A stretch of 42,434 nt of DNA, from positions 1 through 42,434 of the forward strand of contig CAZAHA010000001.1 in assembly GCA_964484915.1 (NCBI GenBank). The letters are read 5' to 3'. The notes below the pieces were generated by a model. The model had not been told where the DNA came from. It made no database searches and saw nothing but the letters and a program-made list of their open reading frames with translations. The stretch is from an uncultured Leptospirales bacterium. GTDB lineage: Bacteria; Spirochaetota; UBA4802; JAFGJZ01. The translations under genes and the position numbers were made by a program. Shown one piece after another: positions 3,001 to 26,816 of this stretch (its first letter is position 1; each line of letters starts with the position of its first letter).

Positions 3001-5725
3001 TTTCCGGGAACTTGAGTTCGTTGTTTGTCTCAAGCGCCCGTTCATACACGTCAATCACGCTCTCGAGCAGATAATCAGGAAAGTACTGTTCATAGAGGTA
3101 GCCGAGCTGACTCTGCTTACTCAGCTCCCTGTTGCGGCGGGAATCAATATAGTGATAGATCCATCCCTTGAGCAGGTATGAATCAGAGAAACTATCATCC
3201 ATATACAATGACCACTCAAGATTATCCAGCGAATTTTTAAAATGCCTGGTTATGAGTTCAGCTGATATCTTTTCAGCATCCGGTTCAAACGTGGTTCTGA
3301 CGTTCGTCAGCTCCGGATCTTCCTTATATGCGGTGTCCAGATGATATCCGAGCTTTGCATAGATATACGCCAAACCAAACATATATGACTTGTCAAAGTT
3401 ACGCCGCGCACGCGAAATTCCATCCAGATAGTCAGCACGGAGGGACTCAAGACTCTCATAAGAGTAGTTTTTGTACTTATAGAATGTATCGATTCGCAGA
3501 ACATGGGCACGGGTGCCGTAGTCGTCGTAGATTGCGTCAAACTTCTTGATGCGTTTGTCCTTTAATGACGAGAGAAATTCTGTATAGTTCTTGTACACAT
3601 TTGACGCTTTTCGGAACTTGTTTTCTTTTTCGTACTGCCTTCCCCTCTGTTCATAGAATTCGATCAGCCTGAGTACGATCTCTTCAAGATCGGCCTGGTT
3701 CCATCGGCCCTTATAGCTGTTCAGGGCGGCAAACAGGTACTGCTCCTCTTCTTCCTTCATCTCCTTGCGCAGTGAAATATCAGCGAGAAGCCTGTTGATG
3801 GAATAATAGAGAACCGTTTCCTGATCGATCGTGTCAAGGCGTGCGGTAAGGTCTTCCTTCACAACCGGGTCGTTTCTGTTATACCGTGTCTGGGCGATGA
3901 TATACCGCGCCATCGCCGTGATGATACGATATTCCCGTTCCTCATTTTCATCATACGCTTCGATCAGTTCTTCCATTCTCCCGATCCGGGAGCTTGGTAC
4001 AAGATCCGACACATACCGCCTCATCATGAACCGGACCGTCTCATCCTTCTGATACGCAGTTCCCTTTGCCATAACCGAGACGAGCTCTTCCGGTACGGCA
4101 GAATCATCCGCGTTAAACAGGAGTATGCCGGCATTGTAGTTCACATATTGCAGTCGGATATAGTCCGGATAATCTTCCTGGATACGCTCATAGTAGAGGA
4201 GGGCTTCTTCCGTTTTGTTCTCATCTCTGTAGTAATTGGCTATATCTTCCATCAGGTACGGCCGAATTGACGAGTCCTCATCCAGAGACTCTAACGCTTC
4301 CTGCAGAACCGGTCCGCCGTCCTCTCCCCTAAGGACGGTGTTTAAAAACGATATGGTCGCGTGCATATACGGATTTTCACCACCGGACTCCTCTTCAGCC
4401 GCGAGAAGCTCATGCATGCGCCATGACTCTGTTTGATTATCGTTTCTGTACGCCTCAAGCGCGACAATCTTGAGCGCTCGCGATGTAAAGATCTGGGACT
4501 CATCATCCAGGCTGTCTCCAAAAAAGTAATAAACCCGCATCAGACCCATGAGATAACGCTCGTAGTCGTTGTCCTCCTGCAGGTACTTCAACGCGGTCTC
4601 GTACTGTTCACCGGCGCTTTGCCGTTTTGGGATCACCCCATATTCCGGAATAATGTTCAGATCGATATTCTCTCCGATCTGCTGTGCATAAACGATGACA
4701 CCGTTGAAGTTGATCTCTTCCGTGTCCTCAAACCTCATGGAATAGACCGGAAAGTAGCGCGGTGAAAAACTGGATACGGAGTAAAAGGTAAGCGGATAGC
4801 TCTGGCCGGTCTGCAGATGACGATACTGAAGAATAGACTTGTCATCGAGGTCAATGACCCCGTCGTCGTTGGTGTCCTTGTCGAAAAGAGTATATACTAT
4901 TTCATAACCGTTTCCGGCAAAAGTCGGATTCATCTCAATATATTCGTTGTCGGTTATCTGCTTCACCGTCCCGGTTTCAACATGTACCGTATAGATGTCC
5001 CCATTATTTTTTTCATCCCGGTACGAGACAAATACAATGTATTCCCCGTCCGGTGAAAACGCCGGATACATCCCGCCGTTGAACGTCAGCTGCCGAAGGT
5101 CATCTCCGTTCCGCCGGACTATCCAGATATTCTCTGTTCCGTCACGTTCTGACGAAAAGGCGATAAAACGGTTGTCCGGCGACCATGCCGGATTTGCGTC
5201 CTTGATGACCTGTCTCATTCCTGTTTCTTCAACAACAACCGAGGAGATGTTCTTTGCCCTGGAATCGAGAGGATCAACTTCTTCCTTTACGTCAGCCTCC
5301 CGGCGGACAAGCGAACCGCTGTTTACACGCAGAACAAAGAGATCGCCCTCGGGATCGTCCTTCTGCGATATGTACGCCAAATATTTTCCGTTGGGTGACA
5401 CAGCTGGAGAATAGTCCTTGGACGCATGTTCGGTTATACGGACTGTCGTGATATCCTTCATCGACCGAAGATATATGTCATAGTTCCCGCGGTCACGGTT
5501 CGAGGTAAAATAAAGAAACCGTCCGCTCTTGGTTATCGATCCATCAACCTCGATAGCGTTCTCAATCGTCAGCGGAATAATGCGTCCCTCGCCGGTCCTG
5601 CCGTACGCCTGTTTGAGCATATCTGAGTAATTGAGGGCATTGTCCAACTCCTCGACATCGCATGTCATTAATGACAGTACGAGAAACGGAAAAATCAGGA
5701 TGAATACTCGTCTAAGTGTGTGCAT
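2..5725 (-). CDS. Very large lipoprotein (>1,908 aa, C-terminus lies beyond the window start): N-terminal TolB-like PD40/WD40 beta-propeller followed by roughly 1,500 aa of TPR-like helical repeats
   Basis: Absent from the ORF track because it has no in-window stop. ATG at 5723-5725 gives MHTLRRVFILIFPFLVLSLMTC (signal peptide plus lipobox-like Cys). Both ends and a mid-point (2195-2230 = NLGHAYFLTGDF) translate in one frame. PD40-type repeats: YSPAVSPNGKYLAY, WSPDNRFIAFSSERDG, YPAFSPDGEYIVFVS. No other ORF longer than 145 aa on either strand in 1-5725. The start overlaps the upstream stop by 1 nt (TGATG). Confidence 0.8.
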   Translation of the reverse strand, partial: MHTLRRVFILIFPFLVLSLMTCDVEELDNALNYSDMLKQAYGRTGEGRIIPLTIENAIEVDGSITKSGRFLYFTSNRDRGNYDIYLRSMKDITTVRITEHASKDYSPAVSPNGKYLAYISQKDDPEGDLFVLRVNSGSLVRREADVKEEVDPLDSRAKNISSVVVEETGMRQVIKDANPAWSPDNRFIAFSSERDGTENIWIVRRNGDDLRQLTFNGGMYPAFSPDGEYIVFVSYRDEKNNGDIYTVHVETGTVKQITDNEYIEMNPTFAGNGYEIVYTLFDKDTNDDGVIDLDDKSILQYRHLQTGQSYPLTFYSVSSFSPRYFPVYSMRFEDTEEINFNGVIVYAQQIGENIDLNIIPEYGVIPKRQSAGEQYETALKYLQEDNDYERYLMGLMRVYYFFGDSLDDESQIFTSRALKIVALEAYRNDNQTESWRMHELLAAEEESGGENPYMHATISFLNTVLRGEDGGPVLQEALESLDEDSSIRPYLMEDIANYYRDENKTEEALLYYERIQEDYPDYIRLQYVNYNAGILLFNADDSAVPEELVSVMAKGTAYQKDETVRFMMRRYVSDLVPSSRIGRMEELIEAYDENEEREYRIITAMARYIIAQTRYNRNDPVVKEDLTARLDTIDQETVLYYSINRLLADISLRKEMKEEEEQYLFAALNSYKGRWNQADLEEIVLRLIEFYEQRGRQYEKENKFRKASNVYKNYTEFLSSLKDKRIKKFDAIYDDYGTRAHVLRIDTFYKYKNYSYESLESLRADYLDGISRARRNFDKSYMFGLAYIYAKLGYHLDTAYKEDPELTNVRTTFEPDAEKISAELITRHFKNSLDNLEWSLYMDDSFSDSYLLKGWIYHYIDSRRNRELSKQSQLGYLYEQYFPDYLLESVIDVYERALETNNELKFPEKEGNIYLNMANTYFVLVNYPEALKNYQAAAKYKTVFSSKEQQALFYFHLGYCYYQTGDIANATEQMKKVERIYSVLSGGSVNNRYAWNLITIYRYYSLFARVENDYTETIRWYRRILDVAARYNVQIDRARYLQEIAYCHIQLKEYDRANEYLNRADTLLESYDETDTPKHNLRITYLGLLHFSIGLSEDQTVFGESRLYREFDTFTKKIYSLTLRELLHRTKGDYNEVIQVLNDKVKFIKGKKLKIHREIRLRTYNNLGHAYFLTGDFEKSERQFTKAWDYAEKNENQNGMFMAIGNLTSLYSYLFENNRDYFDDPLRRINRLVEDIQAYGADYERIETRQRIRRLRERNEFRGLPEPTYEEERRVAEQVQADARQKYRKLDIYQSTLNFYKAELLFEQYEQILSNPSRRTDERIYAYNKEIYDLYSRSASVFEKSLDKDDTDNRTRLKLMLNASVCRERLGQIDNSFEFLEQAQELAEEYSYDDSLVLIYMKEAEFLRKHTKEVGYDISRAADYYDSALALIESLPQQFIQRIPLVESLYDDYCTFLISREEYGKAFDIRERKRRFQLITQMYIVSPELSDEAENSAFQSYKYAVNEIIIQKERLTTALESGRASKDELDRIRKKIDTNSEEIKEAVSDESLLYSFIRYQDGIIRDGDEKKDQSAAGDIVFDFYIFDNTIHAWRYSRGSVTHSSASVPDGTTARTTRLKQGVIELVDTLLPDEEQSKDVYIILSEEIYPVLTDTAETDGDFENLPEYTYVFSVHDVPFVERMSRSLLTSGYSVGRDVAAEAADRDLLQHSVLVDNASPAGSLSRSLFGGEIRPSLLIRNDRDSYRQKRLIYYGSLYSGNANVIFTHAGMVGSLAEKDTLLSEYETFGEMNSVSESERSLIVTGKGGIVTPEEEEYQKIAESLFDSYQQNMIRGNVEDAKYYLFRWRSAASGIENLEYRYALYLASIDSYTDNPNAAVEVLGGLDLAELQDSELKNMIHSHRILYMLQA

Positions 5726-6288
5726 CATTGTTTCTGAAACCAGTTACCGGATTGATTTTGGAGCCAGTCATTTTCCTGTGCGGCTTCACGCTGCTCTTCG
5801 GCAAACTTCTCACCGTACTGTTCGATCTGGTACGGTGTCGGACTTGATGTACCGCCCAGAACGAGCGAACGCGTAAAGATTTTCAGGCGCGCCCTGTTTT
5901 CCTCTTCTATGAGCAGCGTCAGAATCTTCTTCAGTTCGGAATCTTCCTGATACTTCTGTACCGGCCGATACGCAAGCAGGCCGTGATTATTCTCACCAAT
6001 TGCGCCTTCATTCTTGTATTCCCGTACCTTATCGGCGTGTAGTTCACGTATCTTCATTGCCTCAAAGAGCTCTTCGTCCCCGACTATCCGTTCCGTTCTT
6101 GCCGATTCACCCTGCACGTTGGTCTGAACCGAAGAGATGGCCCATGCATTGTCTTCGATTTCCTTGTAGTCACCCACAACCTGGTTTTCCAGCACTGTTG
6201 GTTTACCGGTCAGATGCATCTTCGGGGGCTTAAACGACATACATGATGCGATCGTACAGCAGATAAAAAACACGGCACAGCGTTTCAT
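5725..6288 (-). CDS. DUF1318/YdbL-like periplasmic lipoprotein (187 aa) with an extra N-terminal region of about 85 aa
   Basis: Signal peptide plus lipobox (MKRCAVFFICCTIASC). The C-terminal half carries YdbL-type motifs: GAIGENNHGLL, EEENRARLKIF, and the terminal DWLQNQSGNWFQK (G-x-W-x-x-K signature). ATGA overlap with the upstream gene. Confidence 0.65.
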   Translation of the reverse strand: MKRCAVFFICCTIASCMSFKPPKMHLTGKPTVLENQVVGDYKEIEDNAWAISSVQTNVQGESARTERIVGDEELFEAMKIRELHADKVREYKNEGAIGENNHGLLAYRPVQKYQEDSELKKILTLLIEEENRARLKIFTRSLVLGGTSSPTPYQIEQYGEKFAEEQREAAQENDWLQNQSGNWFQKQ

Positions 6289-9200
6289 TGATAGTCTCCT
6301 TCCCCTATATTACGCAAAAACTCCTGGATCGGTATTCGTTCATATTTAATTTCGTCATTCTCAACAGAGACATTTGTGTAACGCGATATGAATTTTCTTT
6401 CAAGCTTGATCGTCGTATACACGTTTCCCTTCTCTAAATGGAAGATGAACTTATCGAGGTTCATCGTATTATCAACAACAAACTGTGTGGCGCCGAGTTT
6501 GGATTCTCCTTCCTTTTTTGAAAGCGCCTGCATCAACTCATTTGCGAATTCATCACCGATCTTGTAGATGGTAACATATCCTTCAGCGGCAGGGTTTTCC
6601 TGAATATTGACCCCCTTGCCCGAAAGCCGCGTCGTCAGTGACAACTCAGCCTCCCCGGTCTCCTTGTCGGGATTGTCAAGCTTGCCGATACTTATATTCG
6701 TGGCATCAAATGCAAGGCTGTATTCCATGTTATCCGGGTTGAGATCAGCTATATAAAAGAAAGTGTCGCGCATGTAGATCGAACCGTTCATGACCGTCGC
6801 CTTAAAGCGGCTGATTGTGAAGGCATTGCTCCTGAACGCCATGCTCGCGCGAAGGTCCTTCAGATATTCGTACTGTTCCGGACGGGCTGGATGGACCGCT
6901 TTGATTGACTCGATGGTAAAGTTGTCCCGTTCCATAAAATGCTGGTTGTTTATCACATCGGTCTTGTCCGCAGCAGTCATCTCCTTTCCGGTAAACGTTG
7001 GGGCAAAAGAATACTCGTAGGGAAAGTTCATATTGACGTCCTCAACATGAAGCAGCTGCGCCTTGTTCTGGTTTCTGATGTTCAGATTGTCGATGTCTAT
7101 CGTTCCCTGCACACCGCCCGTCTTCAGATCACCGCGCATTCGCGCATTAAACTGTACCTTTCCGCCGAGCTCCCATGTATCATATATCTTGCGGAGTTCG
7201 TCCTTGGCGAAGGTCAACGCCACGCGAACATCTGAATTCCGGAACGGCGCCCCGTTTCTGCCAGGATTCAGATCAAGGAAACCGTGCGTCCGCAGATTAA
7301 CACCAAACGCCTGACTCCATACCCTGAACTCGTTCAGACGCGCGAGCTTGGACTCCGTATCTAACGACGCATCGGTCCGTAAGCGAAGGTCGTATACATC
7401 ATAGTCCGGCAATATGAATCCAAGAAGGACGGTTCCTGCCTGAGTTGTTTCACTGCTGCTGTATCGGGCGTCCATCGTCATGGTAACCGGACGCTCAAGC
7501 GGTATCTCCTGCATGGACTCTCCGATAGAGGCCGGAACCATGTTTATCAGGGGGTTCTTTCTGAAGACCAGGCTTGATATGTTCGCATCCGCGCTTATCG
7601 AGTTTCCCCTTTGCACGTTTGCCGTCATGTCAATACTCAGTGCGTCCTGACCCGTTCTGGAATCGTGAAAGCGGAACGCAAACTTCGGCATCTGATAGCG
7701 AGTGAAGGAATCAGAGGTCTCGGCGTTTACATCAAGATAGAGATTGTTCAGTCCCGAATGTTCCCTTCCGAGTTTATACACAAAGCGCTCCATCGAAAGC
7801 TTCGTCTCGGCACTCACGTCGCTGTTACTGTACAGTACATCATAATCCAACGCAAACTGCGGTATAGTGATCGAAAAATCAGGAACCGATGCCGATACAT
7901 CCGTCATGGAAAGGGCACCGTCGGCTTTTAAGTCTGTTGGCGTGCCCGATACGGTGAGCGGCTTCAGGGAGATCGTTCCGGAAAAACGGGTCGAATCATC
8001 ACCGATAAGCGCCACGTAGTAGGGATAGAGCCTGCCAAGAACGATGGCGCTCTCCTTCATTGTAATATCCACCGTCGGCTGCGATGTTACGGACGATATT
8101 TTGCCCCCAAGGCTTAACCAGCTGTCTCCGGCAAACATGACGTCAAACGAATCTATGGTTACATCATCCTGTACGGGATCGAATGAGAGCTCGTATCCGG
8201 CGGTAAAAGACAGCGGTTTCAGATCGGTCTCCTGAAAACGGACCGGTGTACCGGTCGTCCCCGCAATAAAGCTGCTGTGAAACCGGCGATTCTCTTCGTC
8301 TTCTCCCGAGAACAGCAGATCAAACGAGAAAAGAAGCGGCGGCGAGACGCTTACCGCTTCCGAGTCAAACGCCAACTGCAGACGCCGGTCGGGGTTTATC
8401 CGTACAGCGAACGTCTTGATAAGGTTTATCGCCTGTGGACCCAGTGGTATTTCCTTAGTTGGCGGTATGTCGATCTGTATCTCGGTATCGAACGACGCCA
8501 GCGACGTATCAAAATCTTCACCGTCTACGGTAACATCCAGATCCTGAAGGATAAAATTAAACAGAAAGTTTACCGATATCGGCAGATTTATTGATTCACG
8601 CGGCTCACCCGGTTCCTTTTCCGGACGGGGTTCCTCTTCCGGTAAGGGCTCTTTTTCCTCTTTTACGCTTTCCTTCATCAGTCGCGCGACGTTCCATGAA
8701 CCGTCCTTTTGTATCAGCCGTATCTGCGGCGAGTATATCCCTATCTCCCGGAAGGATACATCGCCGGTAAATATCGAGAAGAAACCGTAATCAAGAACGA
8801 GTTTCTGTATGGAGACAAGATTTTCGTCACCAAAGCCTTCGGGCTGCGTTATGACAATATTCTCTATTACAAAACCGGTATACGGATTAAACGACCGCAC
8901 ATCAAGCGATAGCGACGCGTTGGACATCCTGTTAAAATTTTCCATAGCCAGCGTCTGGACTCGGGAAGGTGAGAGGTAGGCCTTGAGAACGATTAACGCA
9001 GCAAAAACAAGGGATATGAGCGTCAGCGGCACCCATAGAAAAAGGATCTTCGCGGCGATAATGGAAACTCTTGCCGCGATATGCAGCGCCGGCGACTTCC
9101 TGGTTATTCTGTTTGTTTTCTTTTTCTTCCCAACAGCTGGTTTCTTGCGTGGAGGCTTGGTTTTCTCTTCTTCCTTGGGAGGCTCTATCTTTTCCTTTGA

Positions 9201-9308
9201 ATCCGGATTATACAGATAGTCCTTAACACGGCCTTCCATCGAACCGGAACTGCCGTTTTTACTGGACGGAGGTGACTTTTTTTTTTCTGAATCCTTCGGT
9301 TGAGACAT
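6285..9308 (-). CDS. AsmA-family (YdbH/TamB-like) inner-membrane-anchored large envelope protein, 1007 aa
   Basis: Lys/Pro/Glu-rich N-terminal tail of about 70 aa, then a single TM (IIAAKILFLWVPLTLISLVFAALIVL), then a long beta-rich periplasmic region with an AsmA-like N-terminal layout. The genetic link to a YdbL-like gene mirrors E. coli ydbH-ynbE-ydbL. Family assignment is by architecture and context only. Confidence 0.55.
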   Translation of the reverse strand: MSQPKDSEKKKSPPSSKNGSSGSMEGRVKDYLYNPDSKEKIEPPKEEEKTKPPRKKPAVGKKKKTNRITRKSPALHIAARVSIIAAKILFLWVPLTLISLVFAALIVLKAYLSPSRVQTLAMENFNRMSNASLSLDVRSFNPYTGFVIENIVITQPEGFGDENLVSIQKLVLDYGFFSIFTGDVSFREIGIYSPQIRLIQKDGSWNVARLMKESVKEEKEPLPEEEPRPEKEPGEPRESINLPISVNFLFNFILQDLDVTVDGEDFDTSLASFDTEIQIDIPPTKEIPLGPQAINLIKTFAVRINPDRRLQLAFDSEAVSVSPPLLFSFDLLFSGEDEENRRFHSSFIAGTTGTPVRFQETDLKPLSFTAGYELSFDPVQDDVTIDSFDVMFAGDSWLSLGGKISSVTSQPTVDITMKESAIVLGRLYPYYVALIGDDSTRFSGTISLKPLTVSGTPTDLKADGALSMTDVSASVPDFSITIPQFALDYDVLYSNSDVSAETKLSMERFVYKLGREHSGLNNLYLDVNAETSDSFTRYQMPKFAFRFHDSRTGQDALSIDMTANVQRGNSISADANISSLVFRKNPLINMVPASIGESMQEIPLERPVTMTMDARYSSSETTQAGTVLLGFILPDYDVYDLRLRTDASLDTESKLARLNEFRVWSQAFGVNLRTHGFLDLNPGRNGAPFRNSDVRVALTFAKDELRKIYDTWELGGKVQFNARMRGDLKTGGVQGTIDIDNLNIRNQNKAQLLHVEDVNMNFPYEYSFAPTFTGKEMTAADKTDVINNQHFMERDNFTIESIKAVHPARPEQYEYLKDLRASMAFRSNAFTISRFKATVMNGSIYMRDTFFYIADLNPDNMEYSLAFDATNISIGKLDNPDKETGEAELSLTTRLSGKGVNIQENPAAEGYVTIYKIGDEFANELMQALSKKEGESKLGATQFVVDNTMNLDKFIFHLEKGNVYTTIKLERKFISRYTNVSVENDEIKYERIPIQEFLRNIGEGDYQ

Positions 9309-22259: not shown

Positions 22260-22679
22260 CTACTCTCCGATGACCGAGACGCGTACTGACCGGCTCCGCG
22301 AACGGTTGTCATTGTTGATGAGGATTATCTGCTGCCACGTGCCGAGAAACACCCGGCCGTCATCCACAGGAGCCGTTATCTCACAGCCGAAGAGTGTAGT
22401 GCGCATATGAGAGAAACCATTATCGTCACCCCAGGTTTCCGAGTGACGGCTTCGTATTGAACTGGGTACCAGTTTTTCGAGAATGTCACGGACGTCCTCG
22501 ACAAGAGCCGGCTCGTATTCGACGACGGTTACCGTACTGGTGGATCCGATACCGAACACATTGACGATACCGTTGCGTATACGGGATTTCGATACGATAC
22601 GCTGCACTTGGTCGGTCATGTTTACTGCTGATGAAAATCCGTCAACTTGCAGTGTGAGAGTCTCTTTATACACTGCCAT
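22260..22679 (-). CDS. YjbQ/UPF0047 family protein (secondary thiamine-phosphate synthase-like)
   Basis: Family-typical blocks DNGFSHMRTTLFG and GRVFLGTWQQIILINND. Preferred start is the ATG at 22677-22679 (MAVYKETL). The alternative ATG at 22700 would overlap the STAS gene by 35 nt. Confidence 0.8.
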   Translation of the reverse strand: MAVYKETLTLQVDGFSSAVNMTDQVQRIVSKSRIRNGIVNVFGIGSTSTVTVVEYEPALVEDVRDILEKLVPSSIRSRHSETWGDDNGFSHMRTTLFGCEITAPVDDGRVFLGTWQQIILINNDNRSRSRSVRVSVIGE

Positions 22680-23016
22680 GAAAGTTCCTGAGTGCGTCAT
22701 CGACAGAGTTGTAGAGGTCTATGAATTTGTCGATGCCGGTAATCGAAAAGACGTTCATGATGTCGTCGTTTACGGATGATATCACGAGCGTTCCGCCTTT
22801 TTCTTCTGCGTTTCGCTTGATATTGACAAGAAGTCCTATCGCGGTTGAATCGATATACTTGATCTTGGAAAAATCAATGATGATCTTTTTTTGTCCATTC
22901 GACAGATACTCATCAAAGAATGAGGTATAATCGGCCAGATCAAAGACTTTCAAATCGCCGATTATTTCGATAATATCGACATCGTCCATGGTCCGTATAT
23001 TGTATTGAAAAGGCAT
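22666..23016 (-). CDS. STAS-domain protein (SpoIIAA/RsbV-like anti-sigma-factor antagonist), 116 aa
   Basis: IIIDFSKIKYIDSTAIGLLVN carries the conserved phospho-acceptor Ser context (DS-T/S). C-terminus VFSITGIDKFI is typical of STAS. ATG at 23014-23016 with AAAGGGG upstream. Confidence 0.85.
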   Translation of the reverse strand: MPFQYNIRTMDDVDIIEIIGDLKVFDLADYTSFFDEYLSNGQKKIIIDFSKIKYIDSTAIGLLVNIKRNAEEKGGTLVISSVNDDIMNVFSITGIDKFIDLYNSVDDALRNFHGSV

Positions 23017-23031
23017 ATTTCCCCTTTTATT

Positions 23032-23060
23032 AATACCGGCTGCGCGTAACAGCCGGTATT
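23032..23060 (-). terminator. Perfect 11-bp stem / 7-nt loop hairpin between the last AIM24 gene and the STAS gene (no U-tract)
   Basis: AATACCGGCTG-cgcgtaa-CAGCCGGTATT, read directly. On the minus strand it ends 15 nt before the STAS ATG, just 5' of its SD. The lack of a T-run makes it an attenuator, processing or stability element rather than a canonical intrinsic terminator. Confidence 0.35.
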
Positions 23061-23138
23061 GTGTGACACATCAGTTTTTCTGCAACAAGAGATTAATACT
23101 CGACAGTATTTGTAAGAAATCACCGATCGGTGAATTGA

Positions 23139-23813
23139 TCAACTCTTTTTTTCCACTCGTCTGAACTGGTTTGCCCAAGCAGAAAATGAATTCTGGTTTC
23201 GGGTCTGTATATAGAGCGCTCCGTTGCCGGAGAAACGGCAAACGAGTCCCTCTCCCGAAAGAAAGAGTGATTTTAATCCGCCGACTTTTTCTATATTATA
23301 CTGCAGTGACGGTTCGAAAGCAACGATATGTCCGGTATCAACGATGTAATCACCTGATACGTCTATCTTCTTTATCGCGCCGAAGCTCGAGAAAAAGAGC
23401 GTTCCGGTTCCGGACGCCTTCAGAAAGAATAGTCCCTCACCGCCGAAGAATCCCTTGAATCCGCCCCACTTACTGTCGATCTCGATCTCGGGACTGCCGC
23501 AGACATATGCTCCGGTAGACATGATCAGTTCATTACCTGAAAGTTCCACTACATCTATGTCTCCGGTTGTGCCTGACGTAAAAAATATCTCACCAGGACC
23601 GTCCGTAGCGGTAAACGTACTCTGGAAAAAGGATTCTCCGCCCAAAAGTGACCGCTTCGCCGCGCCGAAGAGACCGCCCTTCGCAGCAGCCTTGAGCTCA
23701 ATGTTTGCAGTCATCGATATCATGGCTCCGGCTTCTGATACAATCGATTCGTCCTTCTCCAGATTCACCTTTATGCAGGGAAAATCAGGCTTTCCCAGTA
23801 TTTCGTATTTCAT
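23139..23813 (-). CDS. AIM24/DUF124 (TIGR00266-type) family protein, paralog 3 (224 aa)
   Basis: Shares EAGAMISM, LLGGESFF, FFGGEGLFFLKASGTG, IVDTGHIVAF and SGEGLVCRFSGNG..YIQTR with the two upstream genes. TAGGAGG-N5-ATG context, 9 nt after the previous stop. Confidence 0.85.
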   Translation of the reverse strand: MKYEILGKPDFPCIKVNLEKDESIVSEAGAMISMTANIELKAAAKGGLFGAAKRSLLGGESFFQSTFTATDGPGEIFFTSGTTGDIDVVELSGNELIMSTGAYVCGSPEIEIDSKWGGFKGFFGGEGLFFLKASGTGTLFFSSFGAIKKIDVSGDYIVDTGHIVAFEPSLQYNIEKVGGLKSLFLSGEGLVCRFSGNGALYIQTRNQNSFSAWANQFRRVEKKS

Positions 23814-23822
23814 GCTATCCTC

Positions 23823-24500
23823 CTAACCCTTTCTCGGCGGCAGCATCTGTCCAAGCCAATCGCCGAATGACTTAACGTTTCTGCTCTGAATCCAGATACG
23901 GCCCTTGCCTGAAAATTCCATTATCAGGCCTTCTCCGGAGAAGAAGAAGGACTTCCAGCCGCCGAACTTCTTCACCTTATACGATAGTCCCTCGCTGAAG
24001 GCAACGATATGTCCCGTATCCACAATTATGGATCCGTCAACCGGAAGCTCCTCAATGCCGCCGTAACTCGACAGAAGAACATCACCGTTGCCGGTAAGCT
24101 TGAGAAAGAAGAGGGATTCTCCGGAAAAGAACCCCCTCATGCCCTGAAACTTCGTATCAAAATCAAGATCCTCTGGACCGGCAAGGAACGATGATGACTG
24201 TACGAACATTGATCCATTGAGTGTGACAGTGGCTATGTCTCCGGGGAGGGTCGGCGCGAGTGTGACTTCTCCCTTTCCGTTTTCCGCGGTAAATGTATTC
24301 ATCCAGAAAGACTCACCGCCAAGGACCGCCGCCTTGAGCGATTTCAGGATTCCGCCTTTTTTTGTGGCTTTATGTGTTTGTATGTTAACGTTAGACGACA
24401 TGCTCGCCATTGCTCCGCCTTCGGCCTTGATTTTTTCACCGGCTTCAAGCGAAACCTCAGCAAGCGCATATGACGGTTTATACTGAATATCAATTTTCAT
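23823..24500 (-). CDS. AIM24/DUF124 (TIGR00266-type) family protein, paralog 2 (225 aa)
   Basis: EGGAMASM, VLGGESFW, FFSGESLFFLKLTGNG, IVDTGHIVAF and SGEGLIMEFSGKG..WIQSR. TAGGAGG-N5-ATG context, 9 nt after the previous stop. Confidence 0.85.
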   Translation of the reverse strand: MKIDIQYKPSYALAEVSLEAGEKIKAEGGAMASMSSNVNIQTHKATKKGGILKSLKAAVLGGESFWMNTFTAENGKGEVTLAPTLPGDIATVTLNGSMFVQSSSFLAGPEDLDFDTKFQGMRGFFSGESLFFLKLTGNGDVLLSSYGGIEELPVDGSIIVDTGHIVAFSEGLSYKVKKFGGWKSFFFSGEGLIMEFSGKGRIWIQSRNVKSFGDWLGQMLPPRKG

Positions 24501-24509
24501 GATAACCTC

Positions 24510-25175
24510 CTAGTTTGGCAAGAGACGCGTTACCCAGTCGATGAACCCCCCCGGCACTCTCGACTGAATCCACAGCTTTCCTTTACCGGAAAACTCCATA
24601 ACCAGACCCTCACCTGAGGCCATCGTCGAGAACAGTCCTTTCGACGCCTTTTTAATCTTGTAGGCCAGAGAATCTTCAAAAGCGACAATATGCCCCGTAT
24701 CGACGATGTATGATCCATCCACCTCGATTGGCACTATCGCGCCGTACGATGTGTAGAAGAGATCGCCTGTGCCGCTTGCCTTCAGGAAAAATGCGCCTTC
24801 TCCGCTGAAAAACGACTTCAGTCCGCCGAACATTGCCTTTATCTCTACCTCTTCAGAGGAAGCGAGAAATGCACCGGCCTGCATGATCAGCGTTGTGTTC
24901 TCAAGCCGAACATGCGCCACATCACCGGCAAGATCAGTCGCAAGCCCCAATACCCCTTCTTTCTCCTGTGCACTGTACACATTGACGAAGAGGGACTCAC
25001 CACCCAGAAATTTTCCGGCAAGCGCCGAAAGAAATCCGCTCCCAAACTTGGTAACAACAGAAAAGTTTGGACTCATGTACACCATTGCTCCAGCCTCTGT
25101 TTTTATCTTTTCGCCCGGCTTCAATCGAAGCTCAACAAGCGAATAGGAGGGCTGATGTTTTAACGCAAAGTCCAT
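24510..25175 (-). CDS. AIM24/DUF124 (TIGR00266-type) family protein, paralog 1 (221 aa)
   Basis: EAGAMVYM, FLGGESLF, FFSGEGAFFLKASGTG, IVDTGHIVAF and SGEGLVMEFSGKG..WIQSR. ATG at 25173-25175 with AAGGGG upstream. Confidence 0.85.
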   Translation of the reverse strand: MDFALKHQPSYSLVELRLKPGEKIKTEAGAMVYMSPNFSVVTKFGSGFLSALAGKFLGGESLFVNVYSAQEKEGVLGLATDLAGDVAHVRLENTTLIMQAGAFLASSEEVEIKAMFGGLKSFFSGEGAFFLKASGTGDLFYTSYGAIVPIEVDGSYIVDTGHIVAFEDSLAYKIKKASKGLFSTMASGEGLVMEFSGKGKLWIQSRVPGGFIDWVTRLLPN

Positions 25176-25205: not shown

Positions 25206-25233
25206 AACATATTTGTAATACAATAAAAGTCAA
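25206..25233 (-). promoter_or_regulatory. Candidate sigma70-like promoter for the AIM24 array (TTGACT-N16-TATGTT)
   Basis: On the minus strand, TTGACT is the revcomp of 25228-25233 and TATGTT the revcomp of 25206-25211, with a 16-nt spacer. It sits about 31 nt upstream of the ATG at 25175, in the AT-rich 93-nt gap after the vWA-FHA gene. Sequence match only. Confidence 0.3.
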
Positions 25234-25268: not shown

Positions 25269-26738
25269 TTATACGGTTGACCCGCGGAAGATAAACGAAA
25301 CAGGTCCGATGGTGATCTCGTCCCAGTCAAAGAGCTGCCGCGGACGAAGGAGTTTTTTCCCGTTTAAAAAAGTTCCTTGAAGTGAGACGAGGTCGAATAG
25401 ATAGTACGATCCGTCCATATACTTTATACTGCAATGTCGGGGTGAGACGTCACTGTTCTTTACAACAAGGTGTGATTCCTGTGATGTACCGATAACGACC
25501 TCGTCCTTGGAAAGAGGAAACTTCTTTCGGCGCCCCCCGCTCTGCAGGATCAGCCATGCATTGGCATACATCTCATAATCCCTCTTCTCCGGCTGTCCCG
25601 CGGCTGTGTCCGCCGAATACATCCTGTCTGTCGATGCCGTAAAGAATTCATCATCAAAATCAGGCTCTTCGCTTGTACCGTATTTCTTCCTGTTTTTTTC
25701 CTTTCGTTTCTTATCCTTCCGTTCATACGGAATGTGCGACCGTCTGCGGACAAGGAAGACAAGACCGATACCGAGAAGAACGACAAATAGAATAAGCATG
25801 ATGATTAAAAGAATCTGCGTGTAATCAGGAAACTCTATCGTAAAGAATTCCTTTTCTACCATAAACTCCCTGATGTCCCTGTCACGGATCGATTCGTACT
25901 TCAGCCGTACTTCGAGACGGTGTGGCCTTCCGTCGGCCGTGGCCATGGAGACATATTTCACCAGATGCTGGCTCTTGATATTCTGGATGACTCGTTTGTA
26001 CGCAAGAACAAGGCTGTCGACCGTATCGATAAGGACTGTCTGTCCACCGGTCAGCTTTGCCATCCTGTTCATCGATTCGATATGCCGGGATCCGGACATC
26101 GTGATAACATACAGCGGAACACCTGACTCACGCGAAAGGTCGACAACATCGTCCATTGTTACACTGCTTCCTTCGTCCTTCCCGTCCGTAAAAATGACGA
26201 TAGCTTTTCGGCCGCTGTCAGCACGAGAGACCAGGTCGACCGAATCATAGATCGCGTTATACAGCATCGTCTTCGTACCGTTCCGCGACATCTCGCTTAG
26301 TGTCGAGACGAGTGCGTGTTTGTTGTCACTGAAATTTTTAACTATGACGACACGGTCATTAAAGCGGACCAGGGCGATCCGTTCTGACATGGACGAAGCC
26401 GTAACGATATCGACAGCTGACTTCTTCAGCTTCTTGAACGTATTTTCTGACAGACTCTTGCTCGAATCGATAGAGAAGACAAGATAGAGCGTATCGGTAC
26501 TGCGAGACTGACCGGCAACCTGCACATAGTTTACCCGGAAGCCGTCTTCATAGATAAGGATGTTGTCTTCGTCAAGGCCGCTAATCCAGTTTCCATCCGT
26601 GTCCCGTGCTGACACCAACAGGGAAACCCGCGGAAAGTCACTATCAGTATCGACGGAGTGAATCCTGATAAACGGTCCGCCTAACGCCTCACTGGCTGCG
26701 CACAGGACGAAGAGAATGAGTATCAGCGCTTTTTTCAT
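25269..26738 (-). CDS. Membrane protein with periplasmic vWA domain (intact MIDAS), single TM, basic linker and cytoplasmic FHA domain
   Basis: Signal peptide MKKALILILFVLCAAS. MIDAS DxSxS in FSIDSSKSL, plus NGTKT and IFTDGKDEG. TM segment ILLIIMLILFVVLLGIGLVFLV, then KDKKRKEKNRKK. FHA signature VVIGTSQESHLVV..VSPRHCSI..YYLFDLVSLQGTFLNG. The track start at 26747 is GTG, so the ATG at 26736-26738 is preferred. Confidence 0.85.
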   Translation of the reverse strand: MKKALILILFVLCAASEALGGPFIRIHSVDTDSDFPRVSLLVSARDTDGNWISGLDEDNILIYEDGFRVNYVQVAGQSRSTDTLYLVFSIDSSKSLSENTFKKLKKSAVDIVTASSMSERIALVRFNDRVVIVKNFSDNKHALVSTLSEMSRNGTKTMLYNAIYDSVDLVSRADSGRKAIVIFTDGKDEGSSVTMDDVVDLSRESGVPLYVITMSGSRHIESMNRMAKLTGGQTVLIDTVDSLVLAYKRVIQNIKSQHLVKYVSMATADGRPHRLEVRLKYESIRDRDIREFMVEKEFFTIEFPDYTQILLIIMLILFVVLLGIGLVFLVRRRSHIPYERKDKKRKEKNRKKYGTSEEPDFDDEFFTASTDRMYSADTAAGQPEKRDYEMYANAWLILQSGGRRKKFPLSKDEVVIGTSQESHLVVKNSDVSPRHCSIKYMDGSYYLFDLVSLQGTFLNGKKLLRPRQLFDWDEITIGPVSFIFRGSTV

Positions 26739-26816
26739 CAATGTCACTTTACACTTGGATATTCAGGTATACTATCGGACAAAATGAAAGCGGTGATGAG
26801 ACAAATTGGAAGAATA

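Follow-up and report, generated by a model that had tools for sequence, protein, structure and literature searches.

The stretch of DNA analysed here, referred to as the window, comprises positions 1 to 42,434 (42,434 nucleotides, nt) of contig CAZAHA010000001.1 from an uncultured Leptospirales bacterium (assembly GCA_964484915.1), and an array of three adjacent minus-strand genes of the AIM24/TIGR00266 family, denoted A, B and C, was found between positions 23,139 and 25,175 (Table 1). A reading made earlier from the sequence only had described three genes of 221, 225 and 224 amino acids (aa), spacers of exactly 9 nt and a TAGGAGG-N5-ATG context before the second and third genes; the open reading frames (ORFs) were recovered at those positions, and the spacers and both junctions were read directly from the DNA. 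At each junction the TAG stop of the upstream gene forms part of the next Shine-Dalgarno sequence, and since both spacers measure 9 nt, A, B and C lie in a single reading frame.

Table 1. Features of the AIM24 array and of its surroundings, with positions counted along the window.
Feature	Coordinates	Strand	Evidence
AIM24 paralog A (position 1, type I), 221 aa	24510..25175	minus	ORF; PF01987 E 3.8e-64; TIGR00266 246.3 bits; groups with position-1 genes
AIM24 paralog B (position 2), 225 aa	23823..24500	minus	ORF; PF01987 and TIGR00266 matches; AlphaFold2 monomer model; position-2 orthology
AIM24 paralog C (position 3), 224 aa	23139..23813	minus	ORF; PF01987 and TIGR00266 matches; position-3 orthology; C-terminal signature SF.AWANQFRRV
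A/B junction: TAG stop + GAGG, N5, ATG of B; 9-nt spacer	24501..24512	minus	sequence reading
B/C junction: TAG stop + GAGG, N5, ATG of C; 9-nt spacer	23814..23825	minus	sequence reading
Candidate sigma-70-like promoter TTGACT-16-TATGTT, upstream of A	25206..25233	minus	9/12 matches
Stem-loop between C and the downstream STAS gene; 12-bp stem, 5-nt loop, no U-tract	23032..23060	minus	RNA folding
Small hairpin followed by TTTCTT, 5 nt past the stop of C; weak terminator candidate	23120..23133	minus	hairpin and T-rich tail
vWA-TM-FHA protein, 492 aa, 93 nt upstream of the array	25269..26747	minus	domains described in the text
STAS protein (116 aa), its end overlapping a UPF0047/YjbQ-like gene by 35 nt, downstream of the array	22260-23016	minus	
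1007-aa protein, then DUF1318 protein	5725-9308	minus	
Restriction-modification methylase, 621 aa	36014-37879	plus	

The proteins A, B and C scored 216.6, 229.3 and 227.6 bits, respectively, against the Pfam AIM24 model (PF01987, formerly DUF124; gathering score 25.7 bits), with E-values from 4e-64 to 5e-68 and coverage of model positions 1-205 of 205. The NCBIfam model TIGR00266, a hypothetical equivalog with a curated cutoff of 96.6 bits over the whole protein, gave 246.3, 248.3 and 229.1 bits, and the deposited record labels all three as "TIGR00266 family protein". Global pairwise identities of 49.5% (A-B), 44.1% (A-C) and 45.5% (B-C) were obtained, and the alignment places the shared motif blocks in register. 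The family assignment that the sequence-only reading had made from motifs, and its estimate by eye of paralogs about 40-50% identical, were thus borne out; judged by these profile matches, A, B and C are full-length, ordinary members of a known and annotated family. Across 150 diverse homologs the residues E27, E63, D88, D161, H164, E190, Q205 and R207 are near-invariant. The invariant polar residues of the family are retained at all three positions, so that none of the positions is a decayed copy.

The spread of the array was surveyed with one genome per GTDB species, using 79 loci from the best 80 of 543 confirmed relatives together with the window, which makes 80 sources, and the six-frame ORFs of the survey loci were searched with a hidden Markov model (HMM) built from A, B and C. 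In 67 of the 80 sources there is a tandem array of exactly three AIM24 genes on one strand, and these triplets are distributed over at least seven phyla, namely Spirochaetota (including Leptospira), Planctomycetota, Myxococcota with other deltaproteobacteria, Bacteroidota, Verrucomicrobiota/Lentisphaerota, Cyanobacteriota and Pseudomonadota; the triplets are common and phylogenetically broad, not rare and sporadic. Eleven sources harbor a single gene, most of them archaea and the others a few bacteria or loci truncated at a contig end, and the two that remain are a contig-end truncation (L055) and a locus with a frameshifted third gene (L014). The array size was one or three genes, with no complete two-gene array in this sample, which is biased toward the relatives of A. 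The sampled contexts of representatives that fall outside any position class were single genes, and one P2-like representative belonged to a triplet that the end of its contig had interrupted. In Leptospira the trio is core-like. The frameshifted locus, from Leptospira alexanderi (L014:9370-10052), is the sole broken trio seen among the survey loci; its third AIM24 gene falls into two overlapping ORFs through a frameshift, which marks either a pseudogene or a sequencing error.

The positions within the triplets, designated P1, P2 and P3 and represented in the window by A, B and C, were compared across loci. The nearest relative from another locus occupies the same position for 62 of 65 P1 proteins and for all 67 proteins each of P2 and P3. 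Paralogs within a locus average 42% identity, compared with 45-50% for same-position orthologs over all loci and 50-54% within the type I loci defined below. Neighbour-joining on 168 dereplicated sequences separated P1, P2 and P3 as near-perfect bipartitions, each containing both operon types (F 0.98-0.99). With 100 bootstraps, F ≥0.95 was reached in 40% for P1, 77% for P2 and 73% for P3, P1 having the weakest support, while groupings across positions and a grouping of all type II sequences were recovered in none of the 100. Separate origins for the triplets of type I and type II were rejected, as the positions group across types and the type II sequences never form a clade. Because the same order is found in at least seven phyla together with position-specific orthology, the triplication must be ancient, which agrees with the old triplication kept by selection proposed earlier; the best reading of these sequence comparisons is a single triplication that would predate both the type I/II split and the time at which these phyla diverged, the order of the genes being retained thereafter.

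The spacers are also maintained. Over the 67 triplets the median is 12 nt for both spacers and about 72% of them are ≤30 nt, and a stop codon placed inside the Shine-Dalgarno sequence (TAGGAGG, TAAGGAG) recurs in several phyla, so tight spacers containing a Shine-Dalgarno sequence are the rule across phyla. The lengths of both spacers are divisible by 3 in 16 of the 67 loci, where chance would give about 7, an excess that shared ancestry may explain.

Two types of triplet were distinguished, with 44 type I loci including the window and 22 type II loci, whose proteins are 38-45% identical to those of type I at the same position. The window array belongs to type I, as it clusters with the 43 other type I loci and its products group as P1, P2 and P3 in order; its proteins carry type I sequence and no M48 gene adjoins it. 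Peptidase_M48 was the only recurrent neighbour of the triplets, present in 14 of 65 immediate same-strand neighbours, and the flanks are otherwise unrelated. An HMM search found M48 genes adjoining 17 of the 67 triplet loci, in six phyla, and the type II loci account for 14 of these, out of 22. The M48 neighbour is about 380 aa in length and comprises an N-terminal domain (about 100 aa), a single transmembrane (TM) helix and an HExxH domain, and its gene usually lies upstream of the type II trio. An example is Flammeovirga kamogawensis p1 (KM029_RS26095-26080), where M48 and the triplet are annotated in RefSeq with gaps of 2, 5 and 2 nt. The type II operon shares with the window array the P1-P2-P3 order, the ancestral triplication and the tight spacers, but it is more diverged, usually has the upstream M48 gene, which the window array does not, and sometimes bears a zinc-ribbon extension on P3. 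This N-terminal extension, about 100 aa with a zinc ribbon, was observed on type II P3 proteins in L058, L067, L070 and L073, and also in P0128, P0134, P0170 and L086:1982-2740, some of which are single AIM24 genes.

In a search of 1.84 billion proteins the family comprised 5,793 representative clusters at 50% identity. Natural fusions detected elsewhere in the family join AIM24 to TerD (two cases), GYF_2 and TPR domains (P0222, P0231, P0234 and P0253 for these four) and to zinc ribbons, and the TerD, GYF_2 and TPR fusions support a connection with Ter-type stress systems and with scaffolding between proteins. A neighbourhood association of AIM24 with TerD in group I ter clusters has been reported (Anantharaman et al. 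2012, as cited in PMC5822837). Among the top 150 of the 5,793 representatives no AIM24-AIM24 fusion was found, and an apparent one of 434 aa in L071 was rejected as an assembly artefact that overlaps a run of N.

The architecture of the proteins was analyzed from profiles and from a predicted model. Profile self-comparison (hhalign) aligned residues 12-145 to residues 88-206 with a probability of 98% and an E-value of 4e-14, with a weaker third register, and each repeat closes with a G-[GS]-E-[SG] motif (LGGES, FSGEG and SGEGL). The AlphaFold2 model of B, predicted from a 150-sequence alignment, is all-beta with a C-terminal helix at 209-219 (predicted local distance difference test score, pLDDT, 86.5; predicted template modelling score, pTM, 0.83). 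A Foldseek search with this model against the PDB (entries to April 2026) gave TM-scores of 0.79-0.82 to 1PG6 and 0.70-0.84 to the chains of 1YOX, and beyond these two structures only noise and no other significant match; the corresponding sequence matches to 1YOX and 1PG6 have E-values of 5e-27 and 2e-26. Each chain is thus predicted to consist of three tandem TRAP-like beta-sandwich repeats in a fold like that of 1YOX and 1PG6; only B was modelled as a monomer, and the same fold is expected for A and C from their 44-50% identity. Three equivalent loops of low confidence in the model of B, one per repeat (41-60, 115-130 and 180-190), are rich in G, K and aromatic residues and directly precede the GGES/SGEG motifs. 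The number of ordered residues also differs among the 1YOX chains (186-209), and the three loops of B may become ordered upon assembly, membrane or ligand binding.

No TM segment or signal peptide was detected in A, B or C (maximum 19-residue Kyte-Doolittle value about 1.1), and the best explanation is that they are soluble cytoplasmic all-beta proteins of about 25 kDa each. Their C-terminal tail is short and amphipathic (hydrophobic moment, muH, about 0.7), with position-specific signatures kept across loci: W..p.LP for P1, kLPPr for P2, and fRrV or PFRPv for P3. An AlphaFold2 prediction of a linker-less A+B+C fusion from the single sequence, run without an alignment, was uninformative (pLDDT 34, pTM 0.22).

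The AIM24/DUF124/TIGR00266 family spans bacteria, archaea and eukaryotes, is represented by two crystal structures more than 20 years old, and is included in published lists of proteins that are conserved but functionally uncharacterised (PMC6393860). The proteins of these structures, PA3696 (PDB 1YOX) and SpyM3_0169 (PDB 1PG6), resemble A, B and C in family, in fold and in having three TRAP-like repeats per chain. Lin et al. (2019) modelled on 1YOX and 1PG6 a homotrimeric ring of nine repeats, three TRAP-like repeats per subunit, with the C-terminal helices directed toward the membrane, and stated that the function of every bacterial AIM24 member is unknown (PMC6677890), in line with the earlier remark that no bacterial function is defined for the family; no functional data for the Leptospira locus tags, PA3696/SpyM3_0169 or TIGR00266 were found in the searchable literature. 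PA3696 and SpyM3_0169 are, however, single genes, whereas here three diverged paralogs stand in fixed order with coupled translation signals, an arrangement that implies an as yet undescribed hetero-assembly. The AIM24 domain is also common to yeast Aim24, Arabidopsis PAWH1/2 and the fungal IDC4/HAM-type proteins. The eukaryotic proteins (yeast Aim24, plant AIM24-B/PAWH) carry targeting signals or C-terminal TM helices, in contrast to A, B and C, which have only an amphipathic helix. Eukaryotic AIM24 proteins are proposed to stabilise membrane complexes, namely MICOS and respiratory supercomplexes and the Hrd1-EBS7 complex of endoplasmic-reticulum-associated degradation (ERAD), by means of a trimeric ring that is anchored in the membrane via helices at the C termini (PMC6677890, PMC10203443).

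The explanation that we consider best overall, with about even confidence, is that the array constitutes an ancient, self-contained operon of three specialised AIM24/TIGR00266 paralogs. The proteins A, B and C would be made from one mRNA by coupled translation and would co-assemble 1:1:1 into a pseudo-threefold heterotrimeric ring of nine repeats, with three non-equivalent faces and tails. A hetero-oligomer made by stoichiometric co-translation, which the sequence-only reading had also proposed, is suggested here by the structure of the operon. Such a mixed ring would be a specialised version of the homotrimeric ring of the single-gene relatives, and it might act, a part of the proposal that is held with much less confidence, close to the membrane, as a scaffold or adaptor in the stress response and quality control of the envelope or of membrane proteins. 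Taken alone, a co-translated A:B:C heterotrimeric ring is somewhat favoured by the gene order, the one-or-three gene count, the coupling spacers and the position-specific tails. The membrane-proximal role in stress or quality control is suggested by the M48 linkage of type II, the TerD fusions and the eukaryotic precedents, and is rather doubtful. The most specific form of the proposal is unlikely as a whole; in it an obligate 1:1:1 ring would dock on the cytoplasmic face of the membrane through three different C-terminal helices and would serve as a platform for membrane-protein quality control, with M48 as partner in type II and another partner in type I, as a prokaryotic counterpart of the AIM24 roles in MICOS and Hrd1-ERAD.

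A mixed ring is no surprise in principle, since paralogous hetero-rings exist. In Crenarchaeota, the PCNA1-PCNA2-PCNA3 heterotrimer, which has been experimentally shown, replaces the homotrimeric PCNA with three paralogs that can each bind a different partner. The logic of one gene or three is analogous, although fold and function are unrelated and the AIM24 heterotrimer is only one that we infer. With TRAP the likeness lies in the repeats, a single AIM24 repeat being similar to one TRAP subunit, and closed rings of repeats would be formed in both cases; TRAP, unlike the three-repeat AIM24 chains, is an 11-mer of single-domain subunits and binds tryptophan and RNA, and it gave no detectable sequence match and no Foldseek match with the whole-chain query.

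Several observations weigh against the heterotrimeric scaffold. The survey loci are the best matches to paralog A, which biases the sample toward the relatives of A. The lack of an AIM24-AIM24 fusion among the 150 representatives means that contact between A, B and C has no Rosetta-stone support, and since single-gene relatives evidently work alone, each paralog could form its own homotrimer. The array's own neighbours are conserved only in close relatives. No TerD domain was found in the 33 scanned ORFs of the window, which contains no Ter genes, and an HMM of the 14 M48 neighbours detected no M48 peptidase in the window. The functional reading, finally, is guilt by association in the sister operon type joined to eukaryotic analogies.

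The main alternative is a set of three homo-oligomeric rings, one each of A, B and C, that are co-regulated but physically separate; after the triplication the paralogs would have become sub-functionalised, for example for different clients or ligands, and would share an operon only for co-expression. The homotrimeric state in the published modelling on 1YOX and 1PG6 templates (PMC6677890), the full motif set in every paralog and the missing fusions would all fit such rings. However, a fixed order, a one-or-three gene count and coupling spacers over at least seven phyla are more typical of the subunits of an obligate complex, and the tails are conserved in a position-specific manner, and we regard the separate rings as somewhat unlikely. 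A second alternative, compatible with either oligomeric state, would give the proteins a place in a Ter-like stress response, not as a scaffold but as a module that binds small molecules or metals or has enzymatic activity, with the invariant acidic and His residues at the repeat junctions as ligand sites. It is suggested by the near-invariant polar residues of the 150 homologs, by the TerD-AIM24 fusions and the neighbourhood association cited in PMC5822837, and by the TRAP-like repeats, TRAP binding its tryptophan between repeats. The absence of Ter genes from the window and from the recurrent neighbours of the survey triplets, which leaves the window array outside any Ter association, the lack of a reported ligand for 1YOX or 1PG6 in the literature searched and the lack of a Pfam enzyme-family match speak against it, and this module is quite unlikely. 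A part in anti-phage defence or in a mobile element, for which the link of Ter systems to phage resistance and two weak phage matches could be cited, is disfavoured as highly improbable: the PADLOC-DB 2.0 models gave zero matches against A, B, C and two flanking proteins, the location is origin-proximal and housekeeping, mobility genes are absent from the window, and the Leptospira trio is core-like. Matches in the phage and plasmid collections were mostly single-copy haloarchaeal genes, together with two Bacteroidota secondary replicons with triplets, a pattern unlike that expected for a trait of mobile elements. A recent lineage-specific tandem amplification of redundant copies, favoured by nothing more than the tandem arrangement, is refuted by paralogs that are just 44-50% identical and by same-position orthologs of other phyla that are closer than the paralogs of the same operon.

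In many bacteria the family is represented not by one gene but by three anciently diverged paralogs in fixed order, and the sister version of this trio shares an operon with an M48 membrane protease. These findings give a vague family two concrete hypotheses that can be tested, a heterotrimeric ring and a connection to a membrane protease. The searchable literature, the coverage of which is incomplete, yielded no account of the triplet operon, of types I and II or of the M48 linkage; the fixed-order trio, the two types and the M48 link appear to be undescribed, while the genes themselves are ordinary members of the family.

The transcription signals around the array were also evaluated (Table 1). 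The sequence-only reading had proposed that a promoter upstream of A and a strong stem-loop downstream of C delimit the array as a unit. Both elements lie where it had placed them, and the stem-loop is indeed strong: the 122-nt intergenic RNA downstream of C has a minimum free energy of -34.7 kcal/mol and a z-score of -3.97. The delimiting claim is weak, given that the stem-loop has no U-tract and that promoter-type matches in the region occur at chance frequency (7 found against 5.3 +/- 2.1 expected). The -35 element and the spacing of the promoter candidate are kept in L002, the closest relative with an intergenic region upstream of the orthologous operon, and the candidate appears to be a reasonable but unproven promoter. 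An Rfam search in and around the array returned a single chance miRNA match and no structured-RNA family.

The window covers an origin-proximal housekeeping part of a Spirochaetota metagenome-assembled genome and carries, on the strand of the array, the genes mnmG, rsmG, rnpA, yidC, jag and mnmE, after which an M14 carboxypeptidase, the vWA-TM-FHA protein, the array, the STAS protein and the UPF0047 protein follow. In the vWA-TM-FHA neighbour a vWA domain that looks extracytoplasmic is joined through one TM helix and a basic linker to an FHA domain at the C terminus. The pairing of vWA with phospho-threonine signalling is reminiscent of the TerY-type modules known from Ter systems; no kinase or phosphatase was found near the gene in the window. 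The vWA-TM-FHA, STAS and UPF0047 genes are kept with the triplet only in the closest relatives, L001 and L002, with STAS also in the Myxococcales locus L043, and they were rejected as parts of the system on account of this limited conservation.

A few further observations were made. At a metagenomic triplet locus (L085:1682-3530) the genes directly downstream have weak matches to FliL, a membrane-associated flagellar protein. Elsewhere in the window, and unrelated to the array, the 1007-aa protein has a DUF748 match below the Pfam cutoff (45 vs 50 bits) and is followed by a DUF1318 protein, a pair that we take to resemble a YdbH/YdbL-type AsmA-like operon for envelope lipid transport. The methylase on the opposite strand is of the Eco57I/TaqI-C/N6_Mtase type and is inserted in the origin-proximal housekeeping region, between rsmG and an MptE-like gene.

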